Notes: a model not told the origin generated them from the letters alone. Positions 34,954-52,370 are shown, numbered from the stretch's first letter. The stretch is DNA of 64,000 bases from a virus (IMGVR_UViG_3300022561_000002); one strand, 5' to 3'. Translations and numbers: made by a program.

Positions 34954-35036
34954 TATAAACCTATGGCACCAAAGCGAGGAGTCGAACCCATTGCTAATGC
35001 TTTTGGAGAGCATCCCACGTCCAACGCAGTTTAAAG
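34954..35036 (-). ncRNA. Aberrant 83-nt tRNA-like element (Trp-like CCA anticodon arm, enlarged D region)
   Basis: Acceptor ACCAGAG/CTTTGGT plus CCA; anticodon arm ATGCT-CTCCAAA-AGCAT; weak T-stem; about 7 extra nt in the D region. Confidence 0.3.
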
Positions 35037-35042
35037 TTACTC

Positions 35043-35127
35043 TGGTATGATTTGGAGGAGAGTTAGGGAATCGAACCCTATAAAGTTTGACCTCACGACT
35101 GCGTTCAAAACAGCTTACCACCATTAG
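35043..35127 (-). tRNA. tRNA-Ser (anticodon TGA), type II
   Basis: Long variable arm; anticodon loop TTTGAAC; T-arm GGGTTCGATTCCC; CCA. Confidence 0.65.
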
Positions 35128-35181
35128 TCTACTCTCCATATATATAAGGACTACTACTGAGAGTAGCCCTTATAAGATTAT

Positions 35182-36207
35182 TTATTCAGTTTCTTTCTTT
35201 CTACCAAGTAGCATGATGCCTCCCGCAGATATCAACATTAATCCCATTAATAGTATAAGGTCTAATGAACCTCCTGTTTGTGGAATAACATCTAAAACTG
35301 GTTCTTCTGTTATAACAGCAGGTGGTGTAATTGCAGGCGGTGTAACTATAATTGCAACTGGCGTAACTATAACCGCAGGTGGAGTTACCACAACAGCAGG
35401 TGGAGTTACTATAGTTGTAGTGTGATGATGATGAGTAACTGGTACAACTGGTATAACTGGTACATCAGGCACCTTATATTCATTTACAAATAATACTTCT
35501 TTCGTTGGATTATCTTCATCTATAGTAACTATCATAGATATAGGTGAGGTAATATTTGTATAAGCGTCATCTGCGATATCTACTTCAGTAAAGGTATATG
35601 TTCCATAAGGAAGATTTAATGTTTTAATACCGCCTTCACTTACAGTATCTGAAGTTAAAGGTAAATTCTTTTCTGTTTTTACATAAGTAAATCCGAATGA
35701 TGTGTTATCAACAATATCTACTCCATTACTGTCTATAACATTTTTAATTACTTCTATTGTTCCTACTTGAGGTTCAATAAAATCATTAGTAAAAGTATAA
35801 AACATATCCCCATTAATTTTACCCGTTTCTACACTTGATGGCTCAACTTGAGTATATCCATCATGAGAGACTTCAACAATTTTAAATTTCATATCTCCAG
35901 GAGCATAACTAAATGTTCCAGGAGTTTTCTCGGAAGCTGTAATTGTTGTAAAAGGTTTCCATTCATGTGTCGGAGGCTTAGGTTTTTTTTCAGAAATAAC
36001 ATCTTCTGTTATATTTGCGTCTTGATTAATTTCTCCCCAAACATAAACTTCAAATGTGAATTCTGTAGTATTAGGTTCTACTCCTCCATTTACAATCTTA
36101 TTGATTGTAACAATACCTGGAGTGCACGCAAATGCTGACATCGGAACTGTAAATAATAGGATTAATGCCATAATCAAGATAGTCGAAAGTAATCTTTTTT
36201 TAACCAT
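35182..36207 (-). CDS. Sortase-anchored (IPQTG) cell-wall surface protein with Cna-B/pilin-like isopeptide-type domains
   Basis: N-terminal signal peptide; GTYTFTEVD...AYTNI motif typical of Cna-B/SpaA-type domains; Pro-rich VTPPAV repeats; C-terminal IPQTGG, hydrophobic helix and RKKETE tail. Confidence 0.55.
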   Translation of the reverse strand: MVKKRLLSTILIMALILLFTVPMSAFACTPGIVTINKIVNGGVEPNTTEFTFEVYVWGEINQDANITEDVISEKKPKPPTHEWKPFTTITASEKTPGTFSYAPGDMKFKIVEVSHDGYTQVEPSSVETGKINGDMFYTFTNDFIEPQVGTIEVIKNVIDSNGVDIVDNTSFGFTYVKTEKNLPLTSDTVSEGGIKTLNLPYGTYTFTEVDIADDAYTNITSPISMIVTIDEDNPTKEVLFVNEYKVPDVPVIPVVPVTHHHHTTTIVTPPAVVVTPPAVIVTPVAIIVTPPAITPPAVITEEPVLDVIPQTGGSLDLILLMGLMLISAGGIMLLGRKKETE

Positions 36208-36575
36208 AATTCCATCTCCTTTATAAATAAAGTTTGAATGGAACTCAACGGCAACTACACGACCATGATAAAAATTTTAGGTTGTAGCTTTGCGAGTTTA
36301 TCTTTTGATAAACGTGCCTTTTCGTAATTCCTAAAAAATATAATACAAGGTTGGTTGTGTATCCTTGTATTTTATATAAATTTGAGTTTAATTCGCAACA
36401 TAATAGCTATTGTATGTTTGCATGAAGATTATTCTTTTGCCAATAGGCTTAAACTCCTTACCTATATCTCGTTCTTCTTCAGTTCATCCCGCGAGATCCT
36501 TAAATGAACTATATAAACTCTCTTAAATACCGCGCCTATGCATTCTTACTTTGGAATTTATGCATAACCTACTAT

Positions 36576-36649
36576 TGGTGGACCGGCAGGGAATCGAACC
36601 CTGATGAAATGCTTGCAAAGCACCCATAATCCCGTTATATGACAAGCCC
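36576..36649 (-). tRNA. tRNA-Ala (anticodon TGC)
   Basis: G3:U70 pair present; anticodon loop TTTGCAA; T-arm CAGGG-TTCGATT-CCCTG; CCA. Confidence 0.55.
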
Positions 36650-36653
36650 ATAT

Positions 36654-36727
36654 TGGTAAATCTAACAGGAATTGAACCCGTGTCTCAGCGTTCGTAGCGC
36701 TGCATCCTTCCTCTAGACGATAGATTT
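36654..36727 (-). tRNA. tRNA-Arg (anticodon ACG)
   Basis: Anticodon stem CAGCG/CGCTG with loop CTACGAA; acceptor AAATCTA/TAGATTT; CCA. Confidence 0.6.
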
Positions 36728-36962
36728 ATATTTACTTAGACGCGGCTGTACCAGTTTTCGGCAACTAAGCCTACTAATCTGGGTTCTCATGTCTAAAGCA
36801 AATTTCAATATATTATATTGCAAGTATAATATATTAGGGGATTCTTGCAAAATACCCTTTGTTATTATTAGCTTACCTGTTGCGCAAGTCGCCATAATAC
36901 GGGAATAAGTTATTAGGCATTCCAGGCCTTCTCTTATTTAAGGAGTTGAGAATCTCTTTTTC

Positions 36963-37031
36963 ACACTCAAATGGGAATCGAACCCATGCTGGGGCCGCAA
37001 TGACCGCGTACTTCCATTATACTATTAAGTG
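36963..37031 (-). ncRNA. Aberrant 69-nt tRNA-like element (intact acceptor, D and T arms; truncated or unpaired anticodon region; no encoded CCA)
   Basis: Acceptor CACTTAA/TTGAGTG, D-arm GTAT..GTAC, T-arm ATGGG-TTCGATT-CCCAT, but only 19 nt where the anticodon arm plus variable loop should be. Confidence 0.3.
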
Positions 37032-37130
37032 ATATAAAATACGGTTAGCTTGCTGCTGCAATTTAATTACTTCATCATCGTAAACTAACCGTGGCAGTTA
37101 GCCCGCGGACGGTACTAACGTGATCCCTTT

Positions 37131-37205
37131 TGGTAGACAGTAATGGAGTTGAACCACTCTTGTTCGGATATAAGCCGAATGCACTTACCGATGTACTAAC
37201 TGTCC
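37131..37205 (-). tRNA. tRNA-Ile (anticodon TAT; reads AUA)
   Basis: Perfect anticodon stem TTCGG/CCGAA with loop CTTATAT; acceptor GGACAGT/ACTGTCT; CCA. Confidence 0.6.
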
Positions 37206-37472
37206 ATGAATAATCTTTTTTATGCTTTCTTCAGTTCACCCTTAACAAAGCACTAAGGAGGTTTGTTCTCTTTCACCAACACGGCGGTAGGATTTATCTT
37301 ACGGCCATACCCTACGAAACGGCTTAACTATCTGGCAGGTAAAGCTAATAACCTTGCCTAGCGTGAAGCATCCCGCTAATTAGTTTTTCGTATGTCACTA
37401 ATAAACACCCTTTTAGAGTTTGTTTATACTGGAGTCTCTGTTAGTTCAACGTATTGTTCCAGTGATTGTTTG

Positions 37473-37545
37473 TGGAGCGCCAGGCTGGAATCGAACCAGC
37501 TCTAATGGGGTTGCAATCCATCTTCTCTCCAAGAGAAACTAACGC
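37473..37545 (-). tRNA. tRNA-Cys (anticodon GCA)
   Basis: Anticodon loop TTGCAAC; T-arm GCTGG-TTCGATT-CCAGC; short D-loop; CCA. Confidence 0.5.
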
Positions 37546-37548
37546 ATA

Positions 37549-37809
37549 TTATGGCTTTAATATTTCGCCATATTCTTTTATAATACTTTCTCTATTTTCT
37601 TCTTCAAGAAAAATTACATAAGCCATTATATCAGCATCTAAACCTTCTTCTTCTGCTTGCTCTTCAGTCCCAAAATCATTGGCACGAGAAAATGCTAATT
37701 CATCAGCATATTCATATATACTTTCTATAGACATACCATCAGCGAATTCATATACTTCATCAAAGTCTTCTCCGCAATAGCAAGTTTCTGTTTTAATATT
37801 TAATAACAT
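37549..37809 (-). CDS. Hypothetical acidic protein
   Basis: 86 aa ORF directly downstream of a consensus promoter. Confidence 0.4.
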   Translation of the reverse strand: MLLNIKTETCYCGEDFDEVYEFADGMSIESIYEYADELAFSRANDFGTEEQAEEEGLDADIMAYVIFLEEENRESIIKEYGEILKP

Positions 37810-37851
37810 AATGTCCTCCTTTTATTTTTTCTTGTTTTTTGATTATGATAT

Positions 37852-37880
37852 ATTATACTATATTTTTTAAACTTTGTCAA
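37852..37880 (-). promoter_or_regulatory. Consensus promoter upstream of the ORF at 37549-37809
   Basis: TTGACA-17-TATAAT on the minus strand. Confidence 0.6.
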
Positions 37881-37887
37881 GAATTTT

Positions 37888-37975
37888 TGGCGGAGAAGGT
37901 GAGGTTCGAACTCACGTGCCTATTACAACCTAATTGTTTAGCAAACAATCCTCTTTACCATTTGAGTACTTCTCC
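37888..37975 (-). tRNA. tRNA-Ser (anticodon GCT), type II
   Basis: Anticodon stem ATTGT/ACAAT with loop TTGCTAA; long variable arm; T-arm GTGAG-TTCGAAC-CTCAC; CCA. Confidence 0.65.
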
Positions 37976-38913
37976 ATACAAATTGCGACAATTGGCGTTG
38001 CCGCAATTAGAGTCCTTTTCTACACGTGGTAGATAGGTAATTAAATCCACCATTCTATCGACTATTTACGGTGGCAACCCTGTCAAACAAGGAAAGCTTT
38101 CTTTGTTTGTGGACTTACTGCCATATAATGAATGGTCGCCACTAATTGATTGATTTTATTGTTGTCCGCCAACCCTCCGGCCCATACGTCCGGCAGTGCT
38201 TTTTTTACTTTCGGATTAAAGTGTCAATCCACTCATAATTCAACATTCCATTGCTTGTTTATGTTGACAACCCACTCAAAAACAAGGAGATTACGCTTAA
38301 GTTTTCTCTTGTTTAGGACTTACGACCATTTACGTAAAATGACTGCCTAGATTTTACAGTACCTCTCTTTTGGTGGAGGCTCACCAACTGAATAAATCTT
38401 CCACTTTTTGTATACAGGCAGGAACTCTCCTTTTTTTCAGCTCCCTACTAAGGCAAGGGGTTTCCATTATAATCTTTTGTGTTGCTTGGGTATAACGTGC
38501 CAGGTTTAAGCTACATTAGTTTCCTAATGCTCGCATCTTAAGCGAAGCCTTTAGCAGCCGACTTTCGTCGCTATACACAAAAGTTTTTATTAATGTGGAT
38601 AGGGATTTGCACCCTATATGATATATTCGCTTACAAATTTCATATTCTTTGTAACACATATCTAGTCTAATGTCTACTATTGATAACAATGGAGAACTTG
38701 TTCCAACGTCAATCTTTACCATAGCACGAGCAGGTTATACCCCTCGTAAGGCTATGTCTTTTCCACCACCACATTATTATTTTTTCTTTTTTAACCTTAT
38801 AATATATTATATCATATTTTTTGAAAGTTTGCAATAGAAATTTCAAATTCATGAAGTTTATCTGTGCATAATATGTATATTATTTAGCTTTAAAAAATCA
38901 CTTCTGTCCAAAT

Positions 38914-39123
38914 TTATCTTGATTTTCTTTGGTCGATCTTATACCATATAGTAAGATAAATCACAACCACAGAAGCCAAAGCAAACCCGATCCAAAGTGG
39001 AGATAGAACCCACCACCAACTCCAGCTAATTAAATTAGTAATCTTTAGTATTATAAATATAATAAGTATAACACTAAGAAAACTCATTCCACCTTTATCC
39101 TGTACATCTATTCTATTTTTCAT
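38914..39123 (-). CDS. Small membrane protein
   Basis: 69 aa, two TM helices (WWWVLSPLWIG). Confidence 0.35.
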   Translation of the reverse strand: MKNRIDVQDKGGMSFLSVILIIFIILKITNLISWSWWWVLSPLWIGFALASVVVIYLTIWYKIDQRKSR

Positions 39124-40324
39124 TTTTTTCTCCCGCCTTAAAATTATATATTGGTTTAATTATGCTAACGATGTCTACTGTATCTCCTATACAAGATATG
39201 ATTTCTTCCATTGGTTTATAAGCCATTGGAGCTTCATCAAGAGTAGATTTATTAACAGAAGTAGTATAGATCCCTTCCATTGATTTTTCAAATTCATCAA
39301 GAGTTACTAACTCTTTAGCTTTACTTCGACTCATGATACGACCTGCGCCATGTGGAGCAGAGTAGTTCCAATCAGAATTACCTTTACCAACACATATTAA
39401 ACTTCCGTCTCTCATGTTCATTGGTATGATTAATCTCTCATTTTCATAAGCAGAAACCGCACCTTTTCTCAAGATTCCTGCTCCTACATCAATGTAATTA
39501 TGGATTGTATCAAAAACATCTATTGGTTGATATTTAGTTTTTATATGTGAAAATATCTCTGATACGATGGCACTTCTATTCCACAAAGCAAACTCTTGTG
39601 CAATTTGAATATCGTTTAAGTAATCGTCTAAGTTTCCGCCCTCAAGCCACGATAGTGCTTTGCTGAATTTTGGGAGATTAAATTGTGCAAGTGCTGACTC
39701 AATTTCTTTTTCTTTACCTTTTGCTTTTAAGTGATTAACAATATTATCTCTTTCAAGAGTTCTATTATTTAAAGTTTTAAATGCTAAATCTTGGTAGTAT
39801 TCAGCAATTTGTTTGCCGAAATTTCTACTACCAGTGTGTATAACAACATATATATCCCCAGAGTCATCAGTACAAACTTCAATAAAGTGATTTCCACCAC
39901 CTAAAGTTCCTATACTTAATTTAGCTCTTTCTACATTGATAGCAGAAGAACATCTTAATCTATCAAAATTTACAAAACCAGCGAAAAAGTGGACCTCTTG
40001 CCGCACATTAAAACCAGAAGGTACATATTTTTCAATGACTTCATCTAATTCCTTAACGTCAAAACCGTCTTCTTCTCTTAATTTTACTACCTTCATCCCG
40101 CAAGCGATATCAACACCTACTAGATTTGGCACTATTTTAGTACCCAATGTCATAGTTGTACCTATAGTACAGCCAGCACCAGCGTGTACGTCTGGCATTA
40201 TTCTTATTTGACTTCCTTTAGAGAACTCTTGATTGCACAATTCGATAATTTGTCCAATAGCTGTTTCTTCTATGTTGTCTGTAAATACTTTTGCTGTATT
40301 AAATTTCCCTTTTAGTTCAATCAT
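39113..40324 (-). CDS. rtcB: RtcB-family RNA ligase (3'-phosphate/5'-OH)
   Basis: MPDVHAGAGCTIGTT, GGGNHFIEV and SAPHGAGR RtcB signature motifs. Confidence 0.8.
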   Translation of the reverse strand: MIELKGKFNTAKVFTDNIEETAIGQIIELCNQEFSKGSQIRIMPDVHAGAGCTIGTTMTLGTKIVPNLVGVDIACGMKVVKLREEDGFDVKELDEVIEKYVPSGFNVRQEVHFFAGFVNFDRLRCSSAINVERAKLSIGTLGGGNHFIEVCTDDSGDIYVVIHTGSRNFGKQIAEYYQDLAFKTLNNRTLERDNIVNHLKAKGKEKEIESALAQFNLPKFSKALSWLEGGNLDDYLNDIQIAQEFALWNRSAIVSEIFSHIKTKYQPIDVFDTIHNYIDVGAGILRKGAVSAYENERLIIPMNMRDGSLICVGKGNSDWNYSAPHGAGRIMSRSKAKELVTLDEFEKSMEGIYTTSVNKSTLDEAPMAYKPMEEIISCIGDTVDIVSIIKPIYNFKAGEKNEK

Positions 40325-40337
40325 TTGCTCTCTCCTT

Positions 40338-40580
40338 TTATACTATTTCATATATATCAGTTAGCTTCTCACCAGCGTTTATTCGATTTTGTCTAATAAT
40401 AATAGACTCTAAAATTCTCATTCCAGCTGCTTTATCTTTATAATTTGCGATTTCTGACGCAGAACTTTGGTCTTTGCCAGCCAGTAATATAGATATACCA
40501 TCTTCTTTAAGACCAACAGTAACTAAATGAAAATATTCACAATTTACTATCATAGTTTTATTTTTACTTCTAACCCACAT
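40338..40580 (-). CDS. Hypothetical protein
   Basis: 80 aa ORF. Confidence 0.4.
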   Translation of the reverse strand: MWVRSKNKTMIVNCEYFHLVTVGLKEDGISILLAGKDQSSASEIANYKDKAAGMRILESIIIRQNRINAGEKLTDIYEIV

Positions 40581-40604
40581 TTTGATCTCTCCTTATTAAT
40601 ATAT

Positions 40605-40811
40605 TTAAAATGGTGTAGTATCTGCTATTTGATGTACTTGTCCTTCTTCTTCTTCTTCTATAACTTCAGCAGTAGATTCAATTACATCATCAAAGTGAAG
40701 ACTATTTTCTTCTTCTGCTTTTACCATATCGTCTATATTATGACCTACACTAAACAAAGCCATTAAATCTTCCATTCCATACATATTATAATCATTATAG
40801 AAATCACCCAT
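40605..40811 (-). CDS. Hypothetical acidic protein
   Basis: 68 aa ORF, Glu-rich C-terminus. Confidence 0.35.
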   Translation of the reverse strand: MGDFYNDYNMYGMEDLMALFSVGHNIDDMVKAEEENSLHFDDVIESTAEVIEEEEEGQVHQIADTTPF

Positions 40812-41331
40812 TGTAATACCTCTTTATTTCATCAAAATTTATCGGAGTGTAGTTAATCATTTCAACACTAACATTATAATATAAATTCTTTCCGTCACTA
40901 TTTAATAATGTTTGTGTCGTATTATGTATATGTCCATGAATATTCACATATGGAATACTCGGATTTAAAAATACAGGTTTGTGTGAAGCAATATAAAATT
41001 CTTCAACTATAATCGTGTTTCTCGATACTTCTTCGAATCCTGCCGCAAGATATAAAGCAACAGATCTATCGTGATTACCACGAACCATTCTCTTTCTACC
41101 ATTTAATTGTTTAGTAAAAAATTCAATTTGTTCTGCTCCGCCTAAACAAAGGTCACCAAGAAAATAAACTATATCAGTGTTTTTAACAACAGAATTCCAA
41201 TTTTTTATAATCGTTTTATTCATTTCTTCTACTGATGTGAACTCTCTATTACAATATTGCATAATATTCTTATGATTAAAATGTGTATCCGAGATAAAAA
41301 ACGTTTTAGTGTTGCCACCCATATAATCCAC
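40804..41331 (-). CDS. Calcineurin-like metallophosphoesterase
   Basis: FFISDTHFNH, GDLCLGG and RGNHD motifs. Confidence 0.6.
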   Translation of the reverse strand: MDYMGGNTKTFFISDTHFNHKNIMQYCNREFTSVEEMNKTIIKNWNSVVKNTDIVYFLGDLCLGGAEQIEFFTKQLNGRKRMVRGNHDRSVALYLAAGFEEVSRNTIIVEEFYIASHKPVFLNPSIPYVNIHGHIHNTTQTLLNSDGKNLYYNVSVEMINYTPINFDEIKRYYNG

Positions 41332-41541
41332 CTATCCTTTCGTCCTTGATGACCCTTCAGCAGCATATTCTTCAACTATTAAACCCATTCGTACGTTGCT
41401 TATTAATGCTTCTGCTTGACCTAAATACATTATTGCTCTTGGTATATCAATATCTTTATACTCAAGTTCTTCCTCAATTGCCATTAGTCTACCTATCATT
41501 TCTGATATTTCTTGTTTCATTTTTAATAATGATTTTTTCAT
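41332..41541 (-). CDS. Hypothetical protein
   Basis: 69 aa ORF. Confidence 0.35.
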   Translation of the reverse strand: MKKSLLKMKQEISEMIGRLMAIEEELEYKDIDIPRAIMYLGQAEALISNVRMGLIVEEYAAEGSSRTKG

Positions 41542-41611
41542 ATCTACTCCTTATATTCTTGATTTTTTCTCTTTTTCTATATTATTATTATATAATATAT
41601 TTAACAAAAGC

Positions 41612-41655
41612 ACAATAAAAAAGAGCTACCTTCGAAAAGGTAGCTTCTATCTTTT
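41612..41655. terminator. Terminator
   Basis: aaaaaagaGCTACCTTcgaaaAGGTAGCttctatctttt. Confidence 0.5.
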
Positions 41656-41663
41656 AATTAATA

Positions 41664-41942
41664 TTACTTATAATCAGTAGCATAATAACCAATACATTGT
41701 GGACAACCATATTTTGCAATATAATCTTCTCCATTAAAAGCTTTAACACAAACCATTTGACAATCTTTCCAACCAGTGGTCTTTTCATTCATGATCTCGC
41801 CATATAAAACAACATCCTCTGCCTTAACATACCCATCAAATTGTTCTTCTATATATATCTTCATTTCTTCTATAAAAGAAAACTCTTCTTTTTCAGATAA
41901 TGATGCTACCAACGAACCTCTATGCGGTCTATATATTATCAC
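41664..41942 (-). CDS. Hypothetical protein
   Basis: 92 aa ORF; terminator hairpin downstream. Confidence 0.4.
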   Translation of the reverse strand: MIIYRPHRGSLVASLSEKEEFSFIEEMKIYIEEQFDGYVKAEDVVLYGEIMNEKTTGWKDCQMVCVKAFNGEDYIAKYGCPQCIGYYATDYK

Positions 41943-42127
41943 TTAGACTTCCTCCCTTTAGTTCCTTTTTTGGATTTACCCTTTGCGGCAATCCCTCTAA
42001 ATTTATTTCTACTATCATCATTAGAACTATTCTTATAATCTTTTATATTATAACCAAAGTCATAAAATCCGACATACCCGCTATTTCCCATATTAGAAAC
42101 TCCTTTCATGATAAGTAGGTGCTTCAA
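41939..42127 (-). CDS. Hypothetical basic protein
   Basis: 62 aa ORF, Lys-rich tail. Confidence 0.3.
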   Translation of the reverse strand: MKHLLIMKGVSNMGNSGYVGFYDFGYNIKDYKNSSNDDSRNKFRGIAAKGKSKKGTKGRKSK

Positions 42128-42692: not shown

Positions 42693-42724
42693 GATGCCCT
42701 CTCTCCTTTTTTTCTTTCCTTAAC

Positions 42725-44807: not shown

Positions 44808-44809
44808 TT

Positions 44810-45220
44810 TTATTCCTTTCTACATTTGGTTTCTTCAAATTTAGTATCGTCTGGCACAGTTTCTGTTCTTAATGATAAAAAGTTGTTTATAATATCAATG
44901 CTTTTTTGCTCTTTTGCTATCCGACTAAGAAGATGAACATCTGCGCCTTCTACGGTATCTATTATTGCTTCTTCGATTGAAGAAAAGACCTTATTTGCTC
45001 TATTTGTTAATTTATCTTCTTCTAACATAAAATCATCAGTCCATATACTTTCATAAGCATAATGCTCTCTATTATACCACTTAGGACTATGAATTTTAGT
45101 GAATAAAGCCATTTCTATTTTAGGAAGAGTCCTATCTCCATCAAAATATACATCTAAGTAATAAGTGTTGCCGCTTTTGGCTTTTCGTATATCTTTTTCG
45201 ATTATTCTCGTTATATTCAT
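44810..45220 (-). CDS. Hypothetical protein
   Basis: 136 aa ORF. Confidence 0.4.
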   Translation of the reverse strand: MNITRIIEKDIRKAKSGNTYYLDVYFDGDRTLPKIEMALFTKIHSPKWYNREHYAYESIWTDDFMLEEDKLTNRANKVFSSIEEAIIDTVEGADVHLLSRIAKEQKSIDIINNFLSLRTETVPDDTKFEETKCRKE

Positions 45221-45302
45221 TTCGTACTCCTTTATATTGTTTTATTGTAAATCATTATGATATACTATAAATATTTGCATATACTAAATTGGCTTTAGTA
45301 AT

Positions 45303-45509
45303 TTAATCTTCGTATTGGTCGCTTCTTATAATTAAGGCGTAGTCTTTAAGTTCTTTTAATCTTGTTTCTCGTGATTCGATCTCTCGATCAATGTCACAAT
45401 TAACAGCTTCAACTTTTAAAAATGTTTTGCAACTTAAATCACATACATAAGCACTGGAGAAAAAATCATTTTCTAAACAGAATTTACATTTTCGTTTTAT
45501 ACATTTCAT
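45303..45509 (-). CDS. Small Cys-rich protein
   Basis: 68 aa; CKFCLEN...CDLSC. Confidence 0.35.
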   Translation of the reverse strand: MKCIKRKCKFCLENDFFSSAYVCDLSCKTFLKVEAVNCDIDREIESRETRLKELKDYALIIRSDQYED

Positions 45510-45510
45510 T

Positions 45511-45876
45511 TTATCTCATATCTCCATCCCATTCAGTCACCCGTTTTGCTAATTCTTTTTCTTTGCTTGTTCTTTCTAATGTGCGTTCAAGTCTTTTTTC
45601 ATATTCTCCAACTACGAGTTTAATAGCATAAGATAAATCATTTATACATTCAGTATATATATTTTCAGAGACAAGACATGGATCTATTTCTTTGTCATGT
45701 ACTAATTTTAATACAGCACTTTTTCCACCCCACCAAGTTGATTTTTCTTCTCTTTCGAATAAATATACCATCATGTTTGGAAGATAATTACAATCTTCTC
45801 TATCAATAGTAACATAAAACACTCTTCCCGCAGGAGATATAATCTTTTTTCTATCAATCATTGTTTTCATTCTCAT
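45511..45876 (-). CDS. Hypothetical protein
   Basis: 121 aa ORF. Confidence 0.4.
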   Translation of the reverse strand: MRMKTMIDRKKIISPAGRVFYVTIDREDCNYLPNMMVYLFEREEKSTWWGGKSAVLKLVHDKEIDPCLVSENIYTECINDLSYAIKLVVGEYEKRLERTLERTSKEKELAKRVTEWDGDMR

Positions 45877-45949
45877 AAAATTACCTCTCTTTCACTTATT
45901 CTCTATTTCTATATTACTATTATATAATATTTTTTGCAAAACTTCAACA

Positions 45950-45978
45950 AAAAAGAGACCTAAAAAGGTCTCTTTTAA
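45950..45978. terminator. Terminator
   Basis: aaaaAGAGACCtaaaaaGGTCTCTttt. Confidence 0.55.
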
Positions 45979-45982
45979 TATT

Positions 45983-46138
45983 TTATTCTTCATCCGCTCC
46001 TACTATAACCCAAGTGACGGCTGCCGCACTTATAATTGCAAGGAAACTTTCTATTGTTGTATAAGTTGTCTCAAATGCGAACCTTGCCATTAAAGCATAT
46101 GTTAAAACCACTGCCATAAATACTACCATTCTCTTCAT
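45983..46138 (-). CDS. Small membrane protein (51 aa, not in the ORF track)
   Basis: ATGA overlap with the upstream gene; hydrophobic sequence. Confidence 0.3.
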   Translation of the reverse strand: MKRMVVFMAVVLTYALMARFAFETTYTTIESFLAIISAAAVTWVIVGADEE

Positions 46139-46575
46139 CTTTTGACCTCTCTTACTCCATCAAGAAGAAAATTCTGTTTTTGTTCAAAAAGAATCTTCCA
46201 ACATTCATCAATACCCAATTCAGTAGTAAAAATAGTTACATACATCGGCGCATCAGGCCCAACCATCGGCGCAGGTTTTGCAGGATATGTATATCTTCCC
46301 TTAAATTCTTTCATAAGACGATCCATACCTACTTTATCATGAATTGTATGGTAAAGTTCATATGAATGCTCTGAACTTTCCCTAAAAGCTTTTGCTTCGA
46401 ATTCTTTAATAATCGTAACCCAAAAGTCAGCTAAATCTTCGTATTCATCGGCTTCCCATATATCATTTTCTTCTATAGCAATTTTAATTGCTTCATCTAC
46501 CATTGCCAGTTCTCTTCGTGCATCTGCTAATATTCTCTCTGTTTTCATATTAATATCTCCTTCTATCTTCATCAC
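46135..46575 (-). CDS. Hypothetical protein
   Basis: 146 aa ORF. Confidence 0.4.
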
Positions 46576-46963
46576 TTTCTAAATACGCAAAATCAACTCT
46601 TTCAGAGTAATATCCATTAGAAACACCATACCACCTTATAGTAACATATCCTTTAATAGTAGCTAATTTATAAAAAGTCCAAGTTTGGCTATCATAATCA
46701 TCAAGGGGTCCTTGTTCTGAAGCCTCTTCAGCCATAAGAATAGGGCTACCTATTAAATTACTAAGGCTGCCGCAGACACTCTCAACATATACACTTTCAC
46801 AACAGTCTTGAGAATGATACATCATCAATATTTTTCCATCAGAAGTACAGAAGATTATTTGATTTTCTAAATCTCCTTTGATTTCAACTACTGTTTTTCC
46901 TAATAAATCTTTTATCATATTAATACTTCCTCTCTCTTTCAGTAAATGCAAATGAAAATGCAA
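46550..46963 (-). CDS. Hypothetical protein
   Basis: 137 aa ORF. Confidence 0.4.
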
Positions 46964-47171
46964 AAGTTCCCGATAAGAAAATAACTAATAATACCGAATA
47001 GACCAAAGCCGCAAGGATACTTCCATCACTTGAAGCTAAATTAGTTGCCATATTTATTATTAAACCACCTAAAAGTATTATATATATCAATCCTGCTATT
47101 GTCCATTTAATATATAACTTTGTTAATCTTAAGCCTTCTTTAAATCTTCTTTTAAATTCATCTTGTTTCAT
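46920..47171 (-). CDS. Membrane protein
   Basis: 83 aa, two TM helices. Confidence 0.35.
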
Positions 47172-47172
47172 A

Positions 47173-47475
47173 TTATAATCTACCGTCCCATTCCATATAT
47201 TTATTATAAGCAGTTTTTATTTTCTCTTCTGTTATTCTCTTTTCATACAACTCTTGTTCATATATATCAACACAATCTTCTACTGCTTGTTTCAAATCTT
47301 TTATATAATTAACATAATCTGCATTAGAGTAAATCGTTTGTTTTAATAACAAAGACCTTTCCGCATAATGAGTGGGAGAGCATATATTAACAATTATTTG
47401 ATTATCAACCTTAATTTCTATTTGAACAAGATAATGATATTCGTTTTTAGAAATTACTTCTTTTGATATTTCCAT
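47173..47475 (-). CDS. Hypothetical protein
   Basis: 100 aa ORF. Confidence 0.4.
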   Translation of the reverse strand: MEISKEVISKNEYHYLVQIEIKVDNQIIVNICSPTHYAERSLLLKQTIYSNADYVNYIKDLKQAVEDCVDIYEQELYEKRITEEKIKTAYNKYMEWDGRL

Positions 47476-47487
47476 CTTTTTACTCCT

Positions 47488-47685
47488 TTATCTCTCTCTA
47501 TAAGTAAGGACACCAGCAGTAATTACTGAAAATATACCTCCACCTATTAAAACCATTCCCCACATACTGTTAATACTCATTAAAAACTTACCAACTTCCA
47601 CTAAAGATAAAATGGCGATTGTGAGTAAAACCATAGATAGTATTGTGACACATAAATTACCCAAAAATTCTTTTATCATAAACAC
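47488..47685 (-). CDS. Small membrane protein
   Basis: 65 aa, two TM helices. Confidence 0.35.
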   Translation of the reverse strand: MFMIKEFLGNLCVTILSMVLLTIAILSLVEVGKFLMSINSMWGMVLIGGGIFSVITAGVLTYRER

Positions 47686-47984
47686 TTCTCTCCAATCTGA
47701 AAAACCAAAAGGCCACTTCCCGCACAGCTTATATGTCCACCTATCTCACAAGCGTCGCCGCATGTTTCAATAGCAAGGTCATAAAAACTCATTTCAAACT
47801 CTATCTCATGTTTTAAATTCGTTTCTTTTAATTCCAAATCAACCATACTCTGTGCCAACATTTCAAATTTAAAAATTAAGTTCTTTCTTTCGACTTCTAA
47901 CCAAGCTTGCTCGGATAGCATTTTTTGTACTCTTTCTTTTGCTCCTATCATCTTATCCCTCTTTTCTATTATCTTCCAGACCAC
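47676..47984 (-). CDS. Hypothetical protein
   Basis: 102 aa ORF. Confidence 0.35.
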   Translation of the reverse strand: MVWKIIEKRDKMIGAKERVQKMLSEQAWLEVERKNLIFKFEMLAQSMVDLELKETNLKHEIEFEMSFYDLAIETCGDACEIGGHISCAGSGLLVFQIGEKCL

Positions 47985-48211
47985 TCATTATCACTCTCAC
48001 AAACTCTTTCTATAAACAAAAAGAATGCAGCTCCAAACATAGAAAGCAATGATACAATAAAAACAATATTTATAAACGTCGAATGGAGTGATTCAATAAA
48101 ACTTGCTAATACTGTCAAAGTAAATACAAACAATATTGCTCCACATATACCTATAAAAAACAACCCTGCTATTCTCCAAAATCTTCTAATACTCTCTTGT
48201 TCTATTTTCAT
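47969..48211 (-). CDS. Membrane protein
   Basis: 80 aa ORF. Confidence 0.35.
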   Translation of the reverse strand: MKIEQESIRRFWRIAGLFFIGICGAILFVFTLTVLASFIESLHSTFINIVFIVSLLSMFGAAFFLFIERVCESDNEWSGR

Positions 48212-48213
48212 CT

Positions 48214-48423
48214 TTATTTCTCCTCATCATCATAAATCGCAGCAGGAACAGCAATTAAACTTATAAAACCTATAAGATACAATAAACCAATAAATATATG
48301 ATGAGGCGGCATTAGGAAACTAATTATTATATTCGCTAAACAAAATACAAAAAGAAAAGCATATCCTATCATCAAAGAGATAGCTATGAAGTAAAAACCG
48401 AAGTTTCTTTTAAATTTCTTCAT
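48214..48423 (-). CDS. Membrane protein
   Basis: 69 aa ORF. Confidence 0.35.
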   Translation of the reverse strand: MKKFKRNFGFYFIAISLMIGYAFLFVFCLANIIISFLMPPHHIFIGLLYLIGFISLIAVPAAIYDDEEK

Positions 48424-48923
48424 GCTTCATCCTCCTCGTCAGCAAAGTTAAACTGTTCGTAAAACTCTATTGGATTATATCCACTCCAAGTTCTACCAAA
48501 GATTTCTACTCCTTTATGAATAAAGCTTTCCTTTGCGTTTACTTTCCTAATATCTTTTGCGGCGATGTCTCCGAAGATATCGCTATGTTTTCCAAGGACT
48601 TCTCCGAAGTCAACTTCTTTTCCAATAATATTTTCAACTTCCTCGTTTGTTGCAACAAAAAGCCCTTCTAAAACGCCCCAACAGCCGCAGTCCCAAAAAA
48701 ATCTCCACAAAAAATCAACTTGTTCTCTTGAGAACTCTAAAAACTCCCAGCCTTCATTCGTCAAAATATCCTGCTCTTTCAAAATCTCAATCGCATCAAT
48801 AACATTTTCACATATAATATGTCCTTCGATTTCAGTTGGTTCTTCATTTTGAAAAGTATTCACTTTATAATAATAGTTTCTGTCTTTCATTCGAATTCCT
48901 CCACTTTCTCCTCGTAGCCGCAT
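48420..48923 (-). CDS. Hypothetical protein
   Basis: 167 aa ORF. Confidence 0.4.
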   Translation of the reverse strand: MRLRGESGGIRMKDRNYYYKVNTFQNEEPTEIEGHIICENVIDAIEILKEQDILTNEGWEFLEFSREQVDFLWRFFWDCGCWGVLEGLFVATNEEVENIIGKEVDFGEVLGKHSDIFGDIAAKDIRKVNAKESFIHKGVEIFGRTWSGYNPIEFYEQFNFADEEDEA

Positions 48924-49228
48924 TCAATGCATTTCATATATGGTTCTTCAAGACTTTGAGACTGGAAGCCCCAGCCCATTGGAAGTTCGGAGGTTACATG
49001 GATATATTTCTTCCCTTTACAATTCGGGCATAGGATACTTTTATCAACTTCTTCCACCAAAAAAGTTTCAATTGGAGAAACAAGATAATTACCTTTTCTC
49101 TCTTGTTCCCAACAAAACGAATTACAAGCCAATCTTTCAGCCATATCTTCATTTTCAGCTAATATAATTCTAATATCTTGTACTGGTATATCAATACGGG
49201 CTCCAACGATTACTTTATATTTTTTCAT
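48887..49228 (-). CDS. Zinc-ribbon protein
   Basis: CPNCKGKK...CIECGY. Confidence 0.4.
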   Translation of the reverse strand: MKKYKVIVGARIDIPVQDIRIILAENEDMAERLACNSFCWEQERKGNYLVSPIETFLVEEVDKSILCPNCKGKKYIHVTSELPMGWGFQSQSLEEPYMKCIECGYEEKVEEFE

Positions 49229-49652
49229 TTGCCCTCTCCTTTTCCATTATCTCTTTAAATAAATGGGTGCCTTCCGCATATTCTATATCTTTAATTTCTA
49301 TATCAAATTCTTTTGCTATATCCCTTGTTAAATGAACATCAAAAGGCTTTTCTTTTGTTGCAAAAGACTCTTTCCAACTTACATCATATCCATAAAAATA
49401 CTTTTTATTAAATAAAACTTCGCTTCCATTCTCTACCCTTATTTCAATCGTATCCGCATTGATAGAAGAACCTTTGATAACCATCATTTTGTTTTTCTTG
49501 ATTATATTCACTTCTCCGAAAGGATTCTCATCTTCTGTATTCTCAATACAACCTTCTTTTTCTTCACAGTTAAAACAATGGTAGTCACCGCAAAAGGTTC
49601 CGAAACAATATCTCGTTTTACTCATTTTATCTCCTTTCAATTGATTTTGCAT
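49215..49652 (-). CDS. Hypothetical Cys-rich protein
   Basis: 145 aa; CFGTFCGDYHCFNCEE. Confidence 0.4.
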   Translation of the reverse strand: MQNQLKGDKMSKTRYCFGTFCGDYHCFNCEEKEGCIENTEDENPFGEVNIIKKNKMMVIKGSSINADTIEIRVENGSEVLFNKKYFYGYDVSWKESFATKEKPFDVHLTRDIAKEFDIEIKDIEYAEGTHLFKEIMEKERANEKI

Positions 49653-49809
49653 ACATTACCGACCCAATGCCCCATATTACTCCAAAACCAATAGTCCCTT
49701 TAAAAACCATTTCAAACTGTGGATTGATTAAGCCCTGCGACCAACATATCATTAACAAAACTCCTGTTAGTATCGCCCATAAAATCGCTTTTATTTTATA
49801 ATCTCTCAT
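49627..49809 (-). CDS. Small membrane protein
   Basis: 60 aa ORF. Confidence 0.35.
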   Translation of the reverse strand: MRDYKIKAILWAILTGVLLMICWSQGLINPQFEMVFKGTIGFGVIWGIGSVMYAKSIERR

Positions 49810-50242
49810 TTGTGTTTTCCTCTTTTCTCTATTTCTATATTATTATTATATAATAATTTTAAGAATTTGTATATAGAAGGGAGAGGGGAGGGGAAAGGGT
49901 ATAATTTTATATATTTTATATAGAATTTTTAAAGAGAATTGTGTGTTTGGCAAATTGCGGTGCGCAGCTCATTTACCCCGCCGGCTTCATTTTCCACCGC
50001 CTTCACGGTTATTTCAATATTTAATTTATATTCAAACCTCCTTTTTCCTAAACCAATTATAACCACCCGATAAATTACATTCTCAACTACTTTTTCCTCT
50101 GCTGAATCCTGCACCAGGTATCTAATTTAGTCAATTTTCAGTTGGTTTGTGTGAGATTTTTTCCGATTTCTTAAAATAATTATAAAATTTTTTTCAAAAG
50201 AGGTCAAATTCAGCCGGATTTAGTATATAAATGACCAAAAGT

Positions 50243-50277
50243 GTGTAATTTTCCCTTAGTTATGTGTAAAATTCCCA
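50243..50277. repeat. Second copy of the iteron motif (TGTGTAATTTTCCCTTAG and TGTGTAAAATTCCC)
   Basis: 20-nt identity GTGTGTAATTTTCCCTTAG with the copy at 42922. Confidence 0.5.
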
Positions 50278-50382
50278 GGATTGGGGTAGAAAGCGCATAT
50301 ATTGGCCCAAAAGCCGCACATTTTGACCTTTTCTCTTGTTTTTAGGAGAAAAAAATAGTTTTTTTATTTTGCCCCGTGCCTA

Positions 50383-50411
50383 TTGACATTTTTGCATATA
50401 TATGGTAAAAT
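50383..50411 (+). promoter_or_regulatory. Only convincing plus-strand promoter in the window (TTGACA-17-TGGTAAAAT), pointing into the tRNA cluster in antisense
   Basis: cctaTTGACAtttttgcatatatatgGTAAAATatc; no + strand ORF downstream. Confidence 0.4.
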
Positions 50412-50431
50412 ATCAGCCGTCTTGCGTGAAA

Positions 50432-50472
50432 ATTTTTTTAAAAAAAAATAGGCCTGCACGTGAATGCAGGCC
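50432..50472 (-). terminator. Rho-independent terminator closing the downstream end of tRNA cluster II (8-bp GC stem plus U9 on the minus strand)
   Basis: GGCCTGCAcgtgaaTGCAGGCC preceded on the + strand by an A run. Confidence 0.65.
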
Positions 50473-50519
50473 CATCTTTAGAAAGGTAGAAAAGAGAGAA
50501 AGAAGCCACCGAAATGGCT

Positions 50520-50595
50520 TTGGAGTGCAAGGAGGGAATCGAACCCTCATCTACTGGGTGGAAGCCGGTAATATTAAGCCGTTATACGACTCGCA
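50520..50595 (-). tRNA. tRNA-Gly (anticodon TCC)
   Basis: Acceptor GTGCGAG/CTTGCAC; anticodon loop CTTCCAC (one stem mismatch); T-arm GAGGG-TTCGATT-CCCTC; CCA. Confidence 0.55.
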
Positions 50596-50898
50596 CATAT
50601 TTTAGTGGCAGAACTATTTTGCTTTAATGAGCGTATATGTTCACTTGTTGACTATTCGGAATCTTAGAAATTGATTTTCGGACCGCGCTATAGGTTGTCG
50701 AAACAGTATCGCCGCATTAGTTAAGTATGCGTGGGCTTTGTTAGCCTATATACCATTTAATCTCCTTTTGCTTAGTAGAAGACACACTTTTCCTAAAACC
50801 AAACAACTTTAATTCTCCCAAACTTTCAGTCGCCACTTGGCGCATCTTATTTTAACGACTAGGTGCCAAAGTCGAGTGTATGTACTGGGCACTGCCCA

Positions 50899-50973
50899 TG
50901 GAGCCACCGATAGGAGTCGAACCTACAACCTGCTGATTACAAATCAGCTGCTCTACCATTGAGCCACGAGGGC
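50899..50973 (-). tRNA. tRNA-Thr (anticodon TGT)
   Basis: Anticodon stem GCTGA/TCAGC with loop TTTGTAA; T-arm GTAGG-TTCGACT-CCTAT; CCA. Confidence 0.6.
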
Positions 50974-51042
50974 ATATAACAAGACACAGTTTGTTTCTAT
51001 CAAATAAGAATTTTTTTAGTTGCTGTTCGTGTCTTTAATTTT

Positions 51043-51120
51043 TGGGGGGATAGATGAGATTCGAACTCACAATTTAATAGATTCACAATCTACCGCGTCT
51101 GCCCATTCCGCCACTAACCC
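51043..51120 (-). tRNA. tRNA-His (anticodon GTG)
   Basis: Anticodon stem GTAGA/TCTAT with loop TTGTGAA; 3' end ...CCCCCCA consistent with a His C73/extra 5' residue arrangement; one acceptor mismatch. Confidence 0.5.
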
Positions 51121-51421
51121 TATGTAGTAAAGAGAGGAGAAAATAAGGGCCACTTTAGGTGTGATTCCCTCGAAAAGTCCTTAATCTCAAGCTTCTTATT
51201 CACTCGGCCTTCCAGCCTCGGGCTACACTCCCGTTTCCGCAGAGAGCGACTCTACATCTAGACTTAGCCATAACTCCAAAAGTCGAAACTAAGGGTCAAC
51301 TTCACTAAATCTAAGTTCATATGCGGGGTGAATGAACTCCACTGTCAAGGTGGAGATAGAAACCCTATCACGCTTTGTTTCTTTACCATTCCATCTTATT
51401 GTATATGGTTAAACCCAATCA

Positions 51422-51520
51422 TGGGCACAAGGTTGGAGTCGAACCAACTCAACACGATCTCTCATAAAGCAACTGTAAGGCTTTATTACTTCCCGTTCCC
51501 CGCCGTCGGGTATCTTGCGC
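51422..51520 (-). ncRNA. Aberrant ~99-nt tRNA-like element (canonical acceptor, T-arm and CCA; extra GC-rich insert on the 5' side)
   Basis: Acceptor GCGCAAG/CTTGTGC; T-arm GTTGG-TTCGACT-CCAAC; internal AAAGC-(9 nt)-GCTTT hairpin; no standard cloverleaf. Confidence 0.3.
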
Positions 51521-51523
51521 ATG

Positions 51524-51592
51524 TGGTGCGAAAGGTAGGACTCGAACCTACAGCGTTTCTATGTCACTGATTTACAGTCAGCTTGCTTCGCC
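51524..51592 (-). ncRNA. Short (~68 nt) noncanonical tRNA-like element, anticodon unclear
   Basis: T-arm GTAGG-TTCGAGT-CCTAC and CCA end are clear; acceptor pairing is imperfect; anticodon arm reduced to ACTG-TAAAT-CAGT. Confidence 0.3.
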
Positions 51593-51611
51593 AATTTGCA
51601 TACTCGCGCAT

Positions 51612-51687
51612 TTGGTGGGAAAACTTGGTATCGAACCAAGATCTTTCGGGCTTCAACCGAACACATAAACCATCTATGTTATCTTCC
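51612..51687 (-). tRNA. tRNA-Phe (anticodon GAA)
   Basis: Anticodon stem TTCGG/CCGAA with loop TTGAAGC; acceptor GGGAAGA/TTTTCCC; T-arm CTTGG-TTCGATA-CCAAG; CCA. Confidence 0.7.
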
Positions 51688-51781
51688 CATGTGGATAGTT
51701 TAACGTCAATATCTAGGACGACCTCTGGAGAGGCTAGCAAGCCAGGTGACCTATGGTTACTTTATACTCTTAACCAAGAGT

Positions 51782-51859
51782 TGGTGATATTAGTGGGCCT
51801 CGAACCCACAGAACTCTACCGTGAAAGGGTAGCGGCTTTACCAATTTGCCCATAATACC
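51782..51859 (-). tRNA. tRNA-Glu (anticodon TTC)
   Basis: Anticodon stem CTACC/GGTAG with loop CTTTCAC; T-arm GTGGG-TTCGAGG-CCCAC; acceptor GGTATTA/TAATATC; CCA; 6-nt variable loop. Confidence 0.5.
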
Positions 51860-51862
51860 ATG

Positions 51863-51938
51863 TGGTGCTTACAGCAGGGTTCGAACCTACGACTTCTTCC
51901 TTGTAAGGGAAGCACTCTACCAACTGAGTTATGTGAGC
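51863..51938 (-). tRNA. tRNA-Val (anticodon TAC)
   Basis: Anticodon stem CTTCC/GGAAG with loop CTTACAA; T-arm GTAGG-TTCGAAC-CCTGC; CCA. Confidence 0.6.
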
Positions 51939-52086
51939 AGGGGACCCCGTATATGTGTTAGTTGTTAACTATTAAACTAACTTTTATCCTATCAGGAAAG
52001 ACTACGAGGTCAGAGCCTTGATCAGTACTTACAACGAGGGATCGATATCATCATAACCATATTGATTGCATTTATAGCCTGCCGGC

Positions 52087-52161
52087 TTGGCGACGAATGC
52101 GAGAATTGAACTCGCGTCTCACGGCTGACAACCGCGCATGTTGACCACTATACCAAAACGC
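52087..52161 (-). tRNA. tRNA-Asp (anticodon GTC)
   Basis: Anticodon stem CGCGG/CCGTG with loop TTGTCAG; T-arm GCGAG-TTCAATT-CTCGC; CCA; imperfect acceptor stem. Confidence 0.5.
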
Positions 52162-52266
52162 CATATATATAGAAGTTTTTTATGTTGTCACATATTATTC
52201 TTCCCGAGTGGACTGCTTTAATTCCATATCCGCAAATTAGAATGAAACCGATTAGACAACTAGGTC

Positions 52267-52370
52267 TGGTGGAGACGATGGGAATTGAACCCATGTCCAA
52301 AACATATACTACTAATACTCCTTTTACGCTCTTGCTTTCGTTCGATCAGGTCTCAGGCTGCACCACCAAT
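52267..52370 (-). ncRNA. Aberrant ~100-nt tRNA-like element with a long bulged 5'/3' terminal helix (Y-RNA-like candidate)
   Basis: T-arm ATGGG-TTCAATT-CCCAT and CCA present; the 5' GGTGG...GAGAC segments pair with 3' GTCTC-CACC around a bulge; no anticodon arm recognisable. Confidence 0.3.

Follow-up and report, generated by a model that had tools for sequence, protein, structure and literature searches.

In bacterial Y RNAs of the YrlA type, a body shaped like a transfer RNA (tRNA), with T arm, D arm and acceptor, bears a non-decoding module in the place of the anticodon stem: the two ends of the molecule form the Ro-binding stem there, and a loop closes the acceptor-like stem (Chen et al. 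2014, PMC4201824). Two other kinds of irregular tRNA are described from phages, namely tRNAs whose altered anticodon loops let them escape anticodon nucleases (van den Berg et al. 2023, PMC10264068; PMC11555353) and the degenerate or pseudo-tRNA genes of large-phage tRNA arrays. Here we analyze three aberrant tRNA-type elements, el1, el2 and el3, in the viral sequence IMGVR_UViG_3300022561_000002, a stretch of 64,000 nt (the window, to which all coordinates refer unless a locus is named), with 34,954-52,370 as the region of interest. On balance, and with moderate confidence, we read el1 as a tRNA-Trp of odd structure that is still decodable, and el2 and el3 as surplus copies of tRNA-Gln and tRNA-Tyr which do not decode and are still excised from the array.

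Like degenerate phage tRNA genes, the three elements lie within the arrays on the same strand as their neighbors, have a tRNA-like acceptor and T arm, and receive low or failed scores from tRNA finders; canonical Gln and Tyr isoacceptors also exist elsewhere in the window. They differ from such genes in that the damage to el2 and el3 is limited to the anticodon region and that el1 is the sole Trp decoder. A first-pass annotation had announced six aberrant tRNA-like RNAs and listed five. Three of these are real, one of them with shifted coordinates, and the other two are misdelimited normal genes. Its statement that all deviate from the cloverleaf alike does not hold, as the anomaly lies in the D arm and T stem of el1, in the anticodon arm of el2, and in the anticodon and variable region of el3. 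Its fallback, that they might be tRNAs with inserts, decoys or pseudo-tRNAs, suits el1-el3 and fails for the two remaining entries, which are fragments of a canonical tRNA-Tyr and of a canonical transfer-messenger RNA (tmRNA).

Structure and ancestry of el1, el2 and el3

ARAGORN makes 25 tRNA calls (el2 among them) and one tmRNA call in the window, arranged in two arrays (34343-37975 and 50521-53818), all on the minus strand, and the tRNA calls cover all amino acids except Trp. At gathering threshold (29 bits for the tRNA model RF00005), Rfam recovers the tmRNA, 23 tRNAs and a cyclic di-GMP-I (c-di-GMP-I) riboswitch. The CCA end is encoded in 24/24 canonical tRNAs. A tRNA covariance model was built from 21 of these, and every window position was scored with the filters off. 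The training tRNAs obtained 57-73 bits (Cys, one truncated entry, 42.5), tRNA-Ser(GCU) 43.2, tRNA-Tyr 37.8, tRNA-Ser(UGA) 25.3 and the 3' end of the tmRNA 25.1 bits; apart from these and the three elements (scores in the table), nothing exceeded 12 bits. Correspondingly, a T-arm motif scan of the two arrays found exactly two T arms outside called genes, those of el1 and el3.

el1 had been placed 10 nt away from its actual span, at 34954-35036; the tRNA-like element itself is real. Its acceptor stem has 7/7 pairs (ACCAGAG/CUUUGGU) and is followed by G73 and an encoded CCA, and its anticodon arm is well formed (AUGCU-CUCCAAA-AGCAU), with a 5-bp stem and a 7-nt loop containing U33 and A37. Where a D arm of 3-4 bp with a G18G19 loop would be expected directly after positions 8-9, 23 unalignable nt replace 16 model positions, and the T loop UUCGACU is carried by a stem with 3/5 pairs, the other two being non-canonical per the model. 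The minimum free energy (MFE) fold agrees with this picture. The score of el1 on the window model corresponds to E 8e-4 over 64 kb. Default ARAGORN makes no call here and Rfam gives no match at E<=10, while relaxed ARAGORN reports Trp(CCA). The string UCUCCAAAA, which contains the anticodon loop, occurs unchanged in el1 and in four canonical tRNA-Trp genes from phage loci related to this one, and ARAGORN finds no other tRNA-Trp in the window. Judged from these features, el1 is a descendant of tRNA-Trp. A1-U72, G73, CCA and the anticodon are identity elements of the bacterial tryptophanyl-tRNA synthetase (TrpRS). We infer that el1 still carries all that the bacterial TrpRS and the ribosome read, namely the loop CUCCAAA with U33 and A37, A1-U72, G73 and CCA, and most likely it still works, perhaps poorly, as the phage tRNA-Trp.

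The 69-nt element el2 was correctly delimited in the first-pass annotation at 36963-37031. ARAGORN calls it tRNA-Gln(UUG), and Rfam sees it as a tRNA of 38.4 bits solely with permissive filters. On the window model its acceptor (7 bp), D (4 bp) and T (5 bp) arms align perfectly, and 15 unaligned nt stand where the model has the 17 positions of the anticodon arm. The anticodon arm that ARAGORN proposes, GCGGU-CAUUGCG-GCCCC, has a C-C mismatch (4/5 pairs) and a loop, CA[UUG]CG, with A33 and C37. Further, el2 lacks position N26, has a variable loop of 3 nt, and ends in U-GAA in place of N-CCA. Its D arm, GUAU-AAUGGAA-GUAC, is of the G18G19 type, and the sequence GUAUAAUGGAAGUAC of this arm is identical in 11 phage tRNAs of IMG/VR, seven of them Gln(UUG) and four Trp(CCA). 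From these matches we conclude that el2 is a descendant of a phage-type tRNA-Gln. A canonical tRNA-Gln(UUG) of the window lies at 34343-34418.

The third element had been reported at 51422-51520 and is likewise borne out. The acceptor stem of el3 (GCGCAAG/CUUGUGC) has 7/7 pairs with one G-U, the T stem 5/5 (GUUGG-UUCGACU-CCAAC), and the D arm, CCCG-ACGGCGGGGAA-CGGG, again conforms to the expected D-arm pattern. Between the D stem and the variable region, at the anticodon position, is a 41-nt segment with the hairpin AUAAAGC-CUUACAGUU-GCUUUAU. It affords no valid anticodon arm, only a 9-nt loop on a 7-bp stem or, alternatively, UAAAGCC with A33; the MFE fold of the central part consists of a 4-bp stem, a 6x6 internal loop and the 7-bp hairpin with its 9-nt loop. 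CCA directly follows the acceptor strand, without a discriminator base. Default tools make no call and Rfam gives no match at E<=10. The ARAGORN models obtained otherwise are forced and contradictory, being Val(UAC) with a 6-nt intron in intron mode and Leu(AAG) in relaxed mode. In its D and T arms el3 agrees with the tRNA-Tyr of L015, a related phage locus, as well as with the type II pattern of bacterial tRNA-Tyr, and the element stands in tandem with the window's canonical tRNA-Tyr, 3 nt downstream of it. By this resemblance el3 is descended from a type II tRNA-Tyr.

The two remaining entries are called as standard genes by ARAGORN in default mode. The supposed element 51524-51592 is this same canonical type II tRNA-Tyr(GUA), 51524-51609, minus its 5' 17 nt. 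The supposed element 52267-52370 is literally part of a tmRNA, its 3' third of 104 nt, comprising the T arm, the 3' acceptor strand and ACCA, and this tmRNA is a standard one-piece form without distinguishing features: it scores 87.7 bits against RF00023 (threshold 47) with model positions 1-374 covered, and according to ARAGORN its tag frame encodes DNEYQLAA. In the alignment the 5' GGGGACG pairs with the 3' CGUCUCC-ACCA, not with the internal GGUGG..GAGAC on which the first-pass annotation had founded a Y-RNA/YrlA architecture; the 5' limit that it had set lies in the pseudoknot region of the tmRNA, which aligns poorly. The proposed helix is internal to the tmRNA, and the Y-RNA reading of this segment is refuted. 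Neither of the Rfam models Y_RNA (RF00019) and YrlA (RF02553) is matched anywhere in the window when the gathering threshold is applied, and relaxing the cut-off to E<=10 in the two arrays brings up no match either. The ends of el1-el3 themselves form an open 7-bp acceptor stem, unlike the end pairing of YrlA, and these elements are not Y RNAs of the kind that had been described. As a separate observation, L015 has at 8113-8195 an 83-nt 'mini-tmRNA' consisting of the tRNA-like domain alone (GGGGAUG...UCUCCACCA); it reaches 77.4 bits on the Rfam tmRNA model with the whole mRNA and pseudoknot part deleted, and it receives no ARAGORN call.

All three elements are on the coding strand and abut canonical tRNAs, each with a fully paired 7-bp acceptor stem and a UUCGAnU T loop. 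The trinucleotide UAU or CAU (YAU) stands directly before 18/24 canonical tRNAs and likewise before el1, el2 and el3. We reject chance resemblance on account of their in-array position, strand, 7/7 acceptor stems and YAU leader. No terminator-like site occurs between the consensus promoter 37880-37852 and el2 or el1. This and the shared YAU leader suggest that the elements would be transcribed together with the neighboring tRNAs and freed in the way of the canonical ones, by processing at both ends. The presence of canonical tRNA-Gln and tRNA-Tyr genes, together with the loss of a decodable anticodon loop and of a proper N73-CCA end, makes el2 and el3 most likely non-decoding copies, either decaying or re-purposed. 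The MFE z-scores of the isolated el1, el2 and el3 (+0.95, +0.09 and -1.30) are unremarkable, as is usual for true tRNAs too, and were not used as evidence. In passing, UGU precedes three further canonical tRNAs, and L015 has the same leader pattern.

Relatives of the elements were sought widely. Searches of 50,697 phage records with each of them by blastn gave no match or a 29-nt T-arm match only; exact and degenerate pattern scans of IMG/VR yielded no relative, one of them matching an unrelated tRNA-Thr; and a genome scan with the core of el2 found nothing. A metagenome scan with the 3' end of the tmRNA revealed no relative among the matches listed, the contigs sharing that 3' end only; these are probably bacterial tmRNA genes. 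Contigs with proteins identical to those of the window are 99.98-100% identical to it and offer no informative variation, and the closest homologues of its DUF2828 protein (see below; 58-63% identity) are on short contigs without tRNAs. An 85%-identical homologue of the SprT protein is known, but on 1-kb contigs only. The nearest informative relative is L015, whose SprT homologue is 60% identical; it has 23 tRNAs, a canonical tRNA-Trp included, and no analogue of el2 or el3, which fits lineage-specific decay. el1-el3 indeed appear to be lineage-specific.

Table 1. Features of the window and of related loci, with strand and basis of assignment
Feature	Position	Strand	Basis or remark
el1, aberrant tRNA-Trp(CCA)-type gene, 83 nt including GCCA	34964..35046	-	window model 20.2 bits; relaxed ARAGORN
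el2, compact tRNA-Gln(UUG)-type gene, 69 nt	36963..37031	-	ARAGORN; window model 40.8 bits
el3, tRNA-Tyr-type body, 98 nt	51423..51520	-	window model 16.0 bits; fold
tRNA-Tyr(GUA), canonical type II	51524..51609	-	ARAGORN; Rfam 48.3 bits
tmRNA, complete one-piece, 303 nt	52267..52569	-	ARAGORN and Rfam
DUF2828 + DUF7788 + VWA_2 protein, predicted Ro60 fold	32574..34055	-	Pfam; AlphaFold2 predicted local distance difference test (pLDDT) 91.5
RtcB RNA ligase	39113..40324	-	Pfam E 9e-66
helix+ACAGCAA copy 1	34056..34098	-	5' leader of Ro60-like gene: AGAUGC-GA-ACAGCAUU...GUAUCUAG and then AUG, which the 3' strand abuts
helix+ACAGCAA copy 2	50980..51034	-	between tRNA-His and tRNA-Thr, ~400 nt downstream of el3
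helix+ACAGCAA copies 3 and 4	53929-53986, 54026-54098	-	tandem at head of tRNA array 2
R2 family examples	L019-L098, e.g. L022 5715-5835, L027 4938-5364; also L005 9812-9924, L007 9810-9925, L009 9787-9906		

DUF2828 loci and their tRNA-like RNAs

The first tRNA array is flanked by the genes for a DUF2828 protein and for RtcB: el1 lies 0.9 kb and el2 2.9 kb from the DUF2828 gene, and RtcB follows 2.1 kb beyond el2. The structure model of the DUF2828 protein has the Ro60 fold over its full length. It is not a member of the Pfam TROVE family, and a literature search found no functional description of DUF2828. RlaP (20222-20878) and two metallophosphoesterases are also encoded in the window. By gene content, the neighborhood of el1 and el2 is of the Ro/RtcB type.

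We now turn to 80 IMG/VR loci encoding DUF2828 homologues (numbered with the prefix L). ARAGORN in intron mode reports, beside the DUF2828 genes, 'tRNAs with introns' of 115-130 nt whose anticodons are inconsistent between orthologues. Thirty-one non-redundant sequences align as a family with a 7-bp acceptor stem, a D arm (GCUCAGUUGGUAGAGC) and a T arm, in which a 7-bp hairpin (..UCAUG-loop-UGUGA..) and, after it, ACAGCAA take the place of the anticodon loop, and compensatory changes occur at 19/23 predicted pairs. The covariance model of this family, R2, detects 124 copies (63.9-111.1 bits, against ~50 bits or less for ordinary tRNAs) in 61/80 loci, with one to four per locus, all on the strand of the DUF2828 gene and within ~1.3 kb upstream or 0.4 kb downstream of it. 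Rfam has no family of its own for these RNAs and sees them only as a tRNA with a 41-nt insert. Their topology is in effect a circular permutation of the YrlA architecture, which makes them good candidates for partners of the Ro60-like protein. The window contains no R2 member, its best matches being plain tRNAs at <=35.6 bits. el2 scores 18.1 bits. el3 was rejected as a member: its 24.1 bits are exceeded by those of plain tRNAs, and its alignment to the model leaves out the hairpin.

Some loci without an R2 RNA have other odd elements near DUF2828 that ARAGORN misses. Those at L066 9010-9078 and L081 8770-8838 resemble el2 (69 nt, with a short anticodon arm), and the one at L090 8026-8121 resembles el3 (96 nt, with a central hairpin of ~17 bp). 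Further ARAGORN-negative tRNA-like elements near DUF2828 are present at L026 4272-4351 (80 nt) and L047 7385-7443 (59 nt). The resemblance to el2 and el3, drawn from DUF2828 loci alone, is no more than suggestive.

The ACAGCAA element also occurs in an unpermuted form, the helix+ACAGCAA motif, which comprises a 6-7-nt strand, NN, ACAGCAAY, a loop of 23-95 nt, the complementary strand, and UG or AG. The pattern AGAYRCNNACAGCA has four exact copies in the window, all on the minus strand and all non-coding, and with one mismatch allowed there are six matches vs 0.57 expected by chance. The helices covary within the window (AGACGC/GCGUCU, AGACAC/GUGUCU, and AGAUGC/GUAUCU with a G-U pair). Across the DUF2828 loci, the core ACNGCA is found in 43/58 distinct upstream regions (ACAGCA in 42) and, where inspected, within such a helix. 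A perfect 6-bp downstream partner accompanies 159/495 forward-strand sites vs 41 expected, as compared with 14/147 vs 11 expected on the reverse strand. L015 has the motif at positions 4227, 4360 and 6893, and Rfam contains no match to it. Roles in protein binding, processing or antitermination are conceivable.

Other contents of the window

The window is AT-rich (GC ~31%, rising to 41-43% in the tRNA-rich stretch at 50-54 kb), and its minus strand carries essentially all open reading frames (ORFs), plus 24 canonical tRNAs and the tmRNA. Genes for replication and nucleotide metabolism include DnaB, gyrase A and B, a class II ribonucleotide reductase, RecJ and DNA ligase. Metagenomic contigs of up to 126.8 kb carry proteins identical to those encoded here; blastn of the whole array returned generic tRNA similarity only, with no close cultured phage. 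A SleB-type cell-wall hydrolase, a sortase-anchored SpaA-like ORF, and the names attached to homologues (Lachnospiraceae, Paraclostridium) suggest a large phage of a Firmicute-like host.

Several canonical tRNAs are themselves unusual. U33 is near-universal in tRNAs; tRNA-Asn (34809-34883, minus) and tRNA-Pro (52734-52811, minus), otherwise high-scoring, have C33 (loops CC[GUU]AA and UC[UGG]AA), each also with a mismatched 27-43 pair. A long variable arm is normal for bacterial tRNA-Leu; tRNA-Leu UAG and UAA (52820-52896 and 52900-52976, minus) are both 77 nt long with a 5-nt variable loop, making them type I, and the Leu(UAA) of L015 has 85 nt.

Within array 1, a c-di-GMP-I riboswitch (36247-36328, minus; Rfam 50.3 bits) lies upstream of ORF 35182-36207, which encodes a SpaA/DUF7601 surface protein with a signal peptide, an IPQTG sortase motif and a C-terminal membrane anchor. 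An 86-aa ORF inside the same array has no homologues that we could find. A small Cys-rich ORF (MKHECCRCGNEMTKDGPGWYCPHCGYTEC; 34180-34270, minus) stands between tRNA-Gln and the promoter of the Ro60-like gene, with its own near-consensus promoter (34325-34297) and a terminator (34174-34159); a zf_Tbcl zinc-ribbon ORF is at ~34510-34662. Between tRNA-Cys and tRNA-Ile is an ORF-free spacer of ~160 nt (37217-37377, minus), 70% identical to L015 7944-8102, with a four-hairpin consensus fold, five compensatory pairs and no Rfam match. Further long, GC-richer, ORF-free spacers are 51121-51421, 52977-53319, 50597-50898 and 36728-36962.

Directly after tRNA-Met-CCA is a candidate ribozyme (53671-53742, minus) resembling the hepatitis delta virus (HDV) type, of the theta kind, with a counterpart at L015 4633-4709. 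The Rfam model HDV-F-prausnitzii gives 37.1 bits for the L015 copy and just 12.8 bits for the window copy. The two align with the core GCCUCCRCGUGGC kept and with compensatory changes in P1 (GGUCUC/GAGACU vs GACCUU/AAGGUC). The theta ribozymes of gut phages (PMC10879173) provide the comparison.

Decoding, decay or partnership

Several observations weigh against reading el2 and el3 as redundant copies in decay and el1 as a working tRNA-Trp. el2 matches any window tRNA at <=48/69 positions and is not a recent copy of the window's tRNA-Gln. The acceptor, D and T pairs of el2 and el3 are intact (7/7, 4/4 and 5/5), with damage confined to the anticodon region and the 3' end, which is not as uniform neutral decay predicts. 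Loci with the same Ro60-like gene have comparable odd elements (L066, L081 and L090). el1, for its part, may have lost its function through the aberrant D region and the weak T stem.

A rival reading is that el2 and/or el3 would be RNA partners, that is Y-RNA analogues, of the Ro60-like DUF2828 protein, acting with RtcB and RlaP in tRNA surveillance or repair during infection. A protein with a full-length Ro60 fold is encoded near el1 and el2 with RtcB beyond, and 61/80 DUF2828 loci have one to four covarying tRNA-like RNAs within ~1.3 kb whose anticodon loop is replaced by a conserved module. Their topology corresponds to a circularly permuted YrlA, in which the Ro-binding module likewise occupies the anticodon-stem position (PMC4201824). 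In el2 and el3, too, the body is intact and the anticodon arm replaced, and R2-less loci carry el2-like and el3-like elements. Yet the window lacks an R2 member (el3 has 24.1 bits vs 64-111 for members), the helix+ACAGCAA module is absent from el2 and el3, and el3 is 17 kb away from the Ro60-like gene. Moreover, several DUF2828 loci are without any tRNA-like RNA, the likeness to the odd elements is drawn from DUF2828 loci alone, and the searches for relatives of el2 and el3 found none. In comparison with YrlA, the window elements share the tRNA-shaped body, the non-decoding module and the vicinity of a Ro60-fold protein and RtcB, and they differ in having no Rfam match, in ending at the acceptor stem rather than at a protein-binding stem, and in the non-TROVE nature of DUF2828. 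A partner role for el2 or el3 is thus conceivable and on present evidence rather unlikely. A more general proposition, which we hold to be unlikely, is that phage DUF2828 proteins constitute a Ro60-like family with tRNA-shaped partner RNAs, most of them using the helix+ACAGCAA family (61/80) and the window phage el2 and/or el3, so as to form with RtcB and RlaP a phage-borne tRNA surveillance and repair system resembling a Y ribonucleoprotein. The window phage would then keep the helix+ACAGCAA element in the mRNA leader of its own Ro60-like gene and in its tRNA array.

Two alternatives relate the anticodon anomalies to cleavage. The elements might be counter-defense tRNAs, serving either as decoys for host anticodon nucleases or as 'hardened' isoacceptors that escape them, and phage tRNAs with anticodon-loop changes that evade such nucleases are documented (PMC10264068, PMC11555353). 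The window shares with that system its non-canonical loops (A33 in el2; C33 in tRNA-Asn and tRNA-Pro, which also break the U33 rule) and its RNA-repair genes, and RtcB, RlaP and the phosphoesterases would indicate pressure from RNA-cleaving defenses. However, the nuclease-evading tRNAs remain functional decoders, whereas el2 and el3 have lost the decodable loop and the proper 3' end: el2 is without CCA, N26 and a purine at 37, el3 without a 7-nt anticodon loop, and neither can replace a cleaved tRNA. A decoy should in turn keep the recognition loop of the nuclease, which both have lost, and no nuclease target is known for the host of this phage. We consider a counter-defense function decidedly doubtful. 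RtcB is the tRNA-splicing ligase of archaea and animals. One could suppose that el3 contains an intron and that, after cleavage, the RtcB of the phage joins the pieces to yield a working tRNA; the presence of this enzyme and the intron-mode Val(UAC) call speak for it. That call is forced, relaxed mode giving Leu(AAG) instead; there is no segment whose removal would leave a 5-bp stem and a 7-nt U33 loop, el3 has no bulge-helix-bulge motif, and a splicing endonuclease is absent among the window proteins scanned. The insert-bearing tRNA-like RNAs of other phages also give inconsistent 'anticodons' between orthologues. With contradictory models and no deletion that restores a U33 loop, we reject splicing of el3 as highly improbable.

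Returning to the reading we prefer, of a decodable tRNA-Trp with two non-decoding tRNA copies, el1-el3 are tRNA-derived orphan oddities and as such a known kind of object, whose weight lies mainly in annotation: what seems to be the phage's only tRNA-Trp is invisible to standard tools, and a fragment of tmRNA was taken for a Y RNA. Their surroundings are the more interesting part, with a DUF2828 protein that is predicted to fold like Ro60, sits together with RtcB and RlaP, and has as its companions in most other phages the strongly covarying R2 RNA and the helix+ACAGCAA motif. If el2 or el3 were indeed its partner RNAs, Ro60/Y-RNA biology would extend to a large phage group via a second protein family, and the purpose of tRNA mimicry by Y RNAs would become testable in the setting of phage-host conflict.

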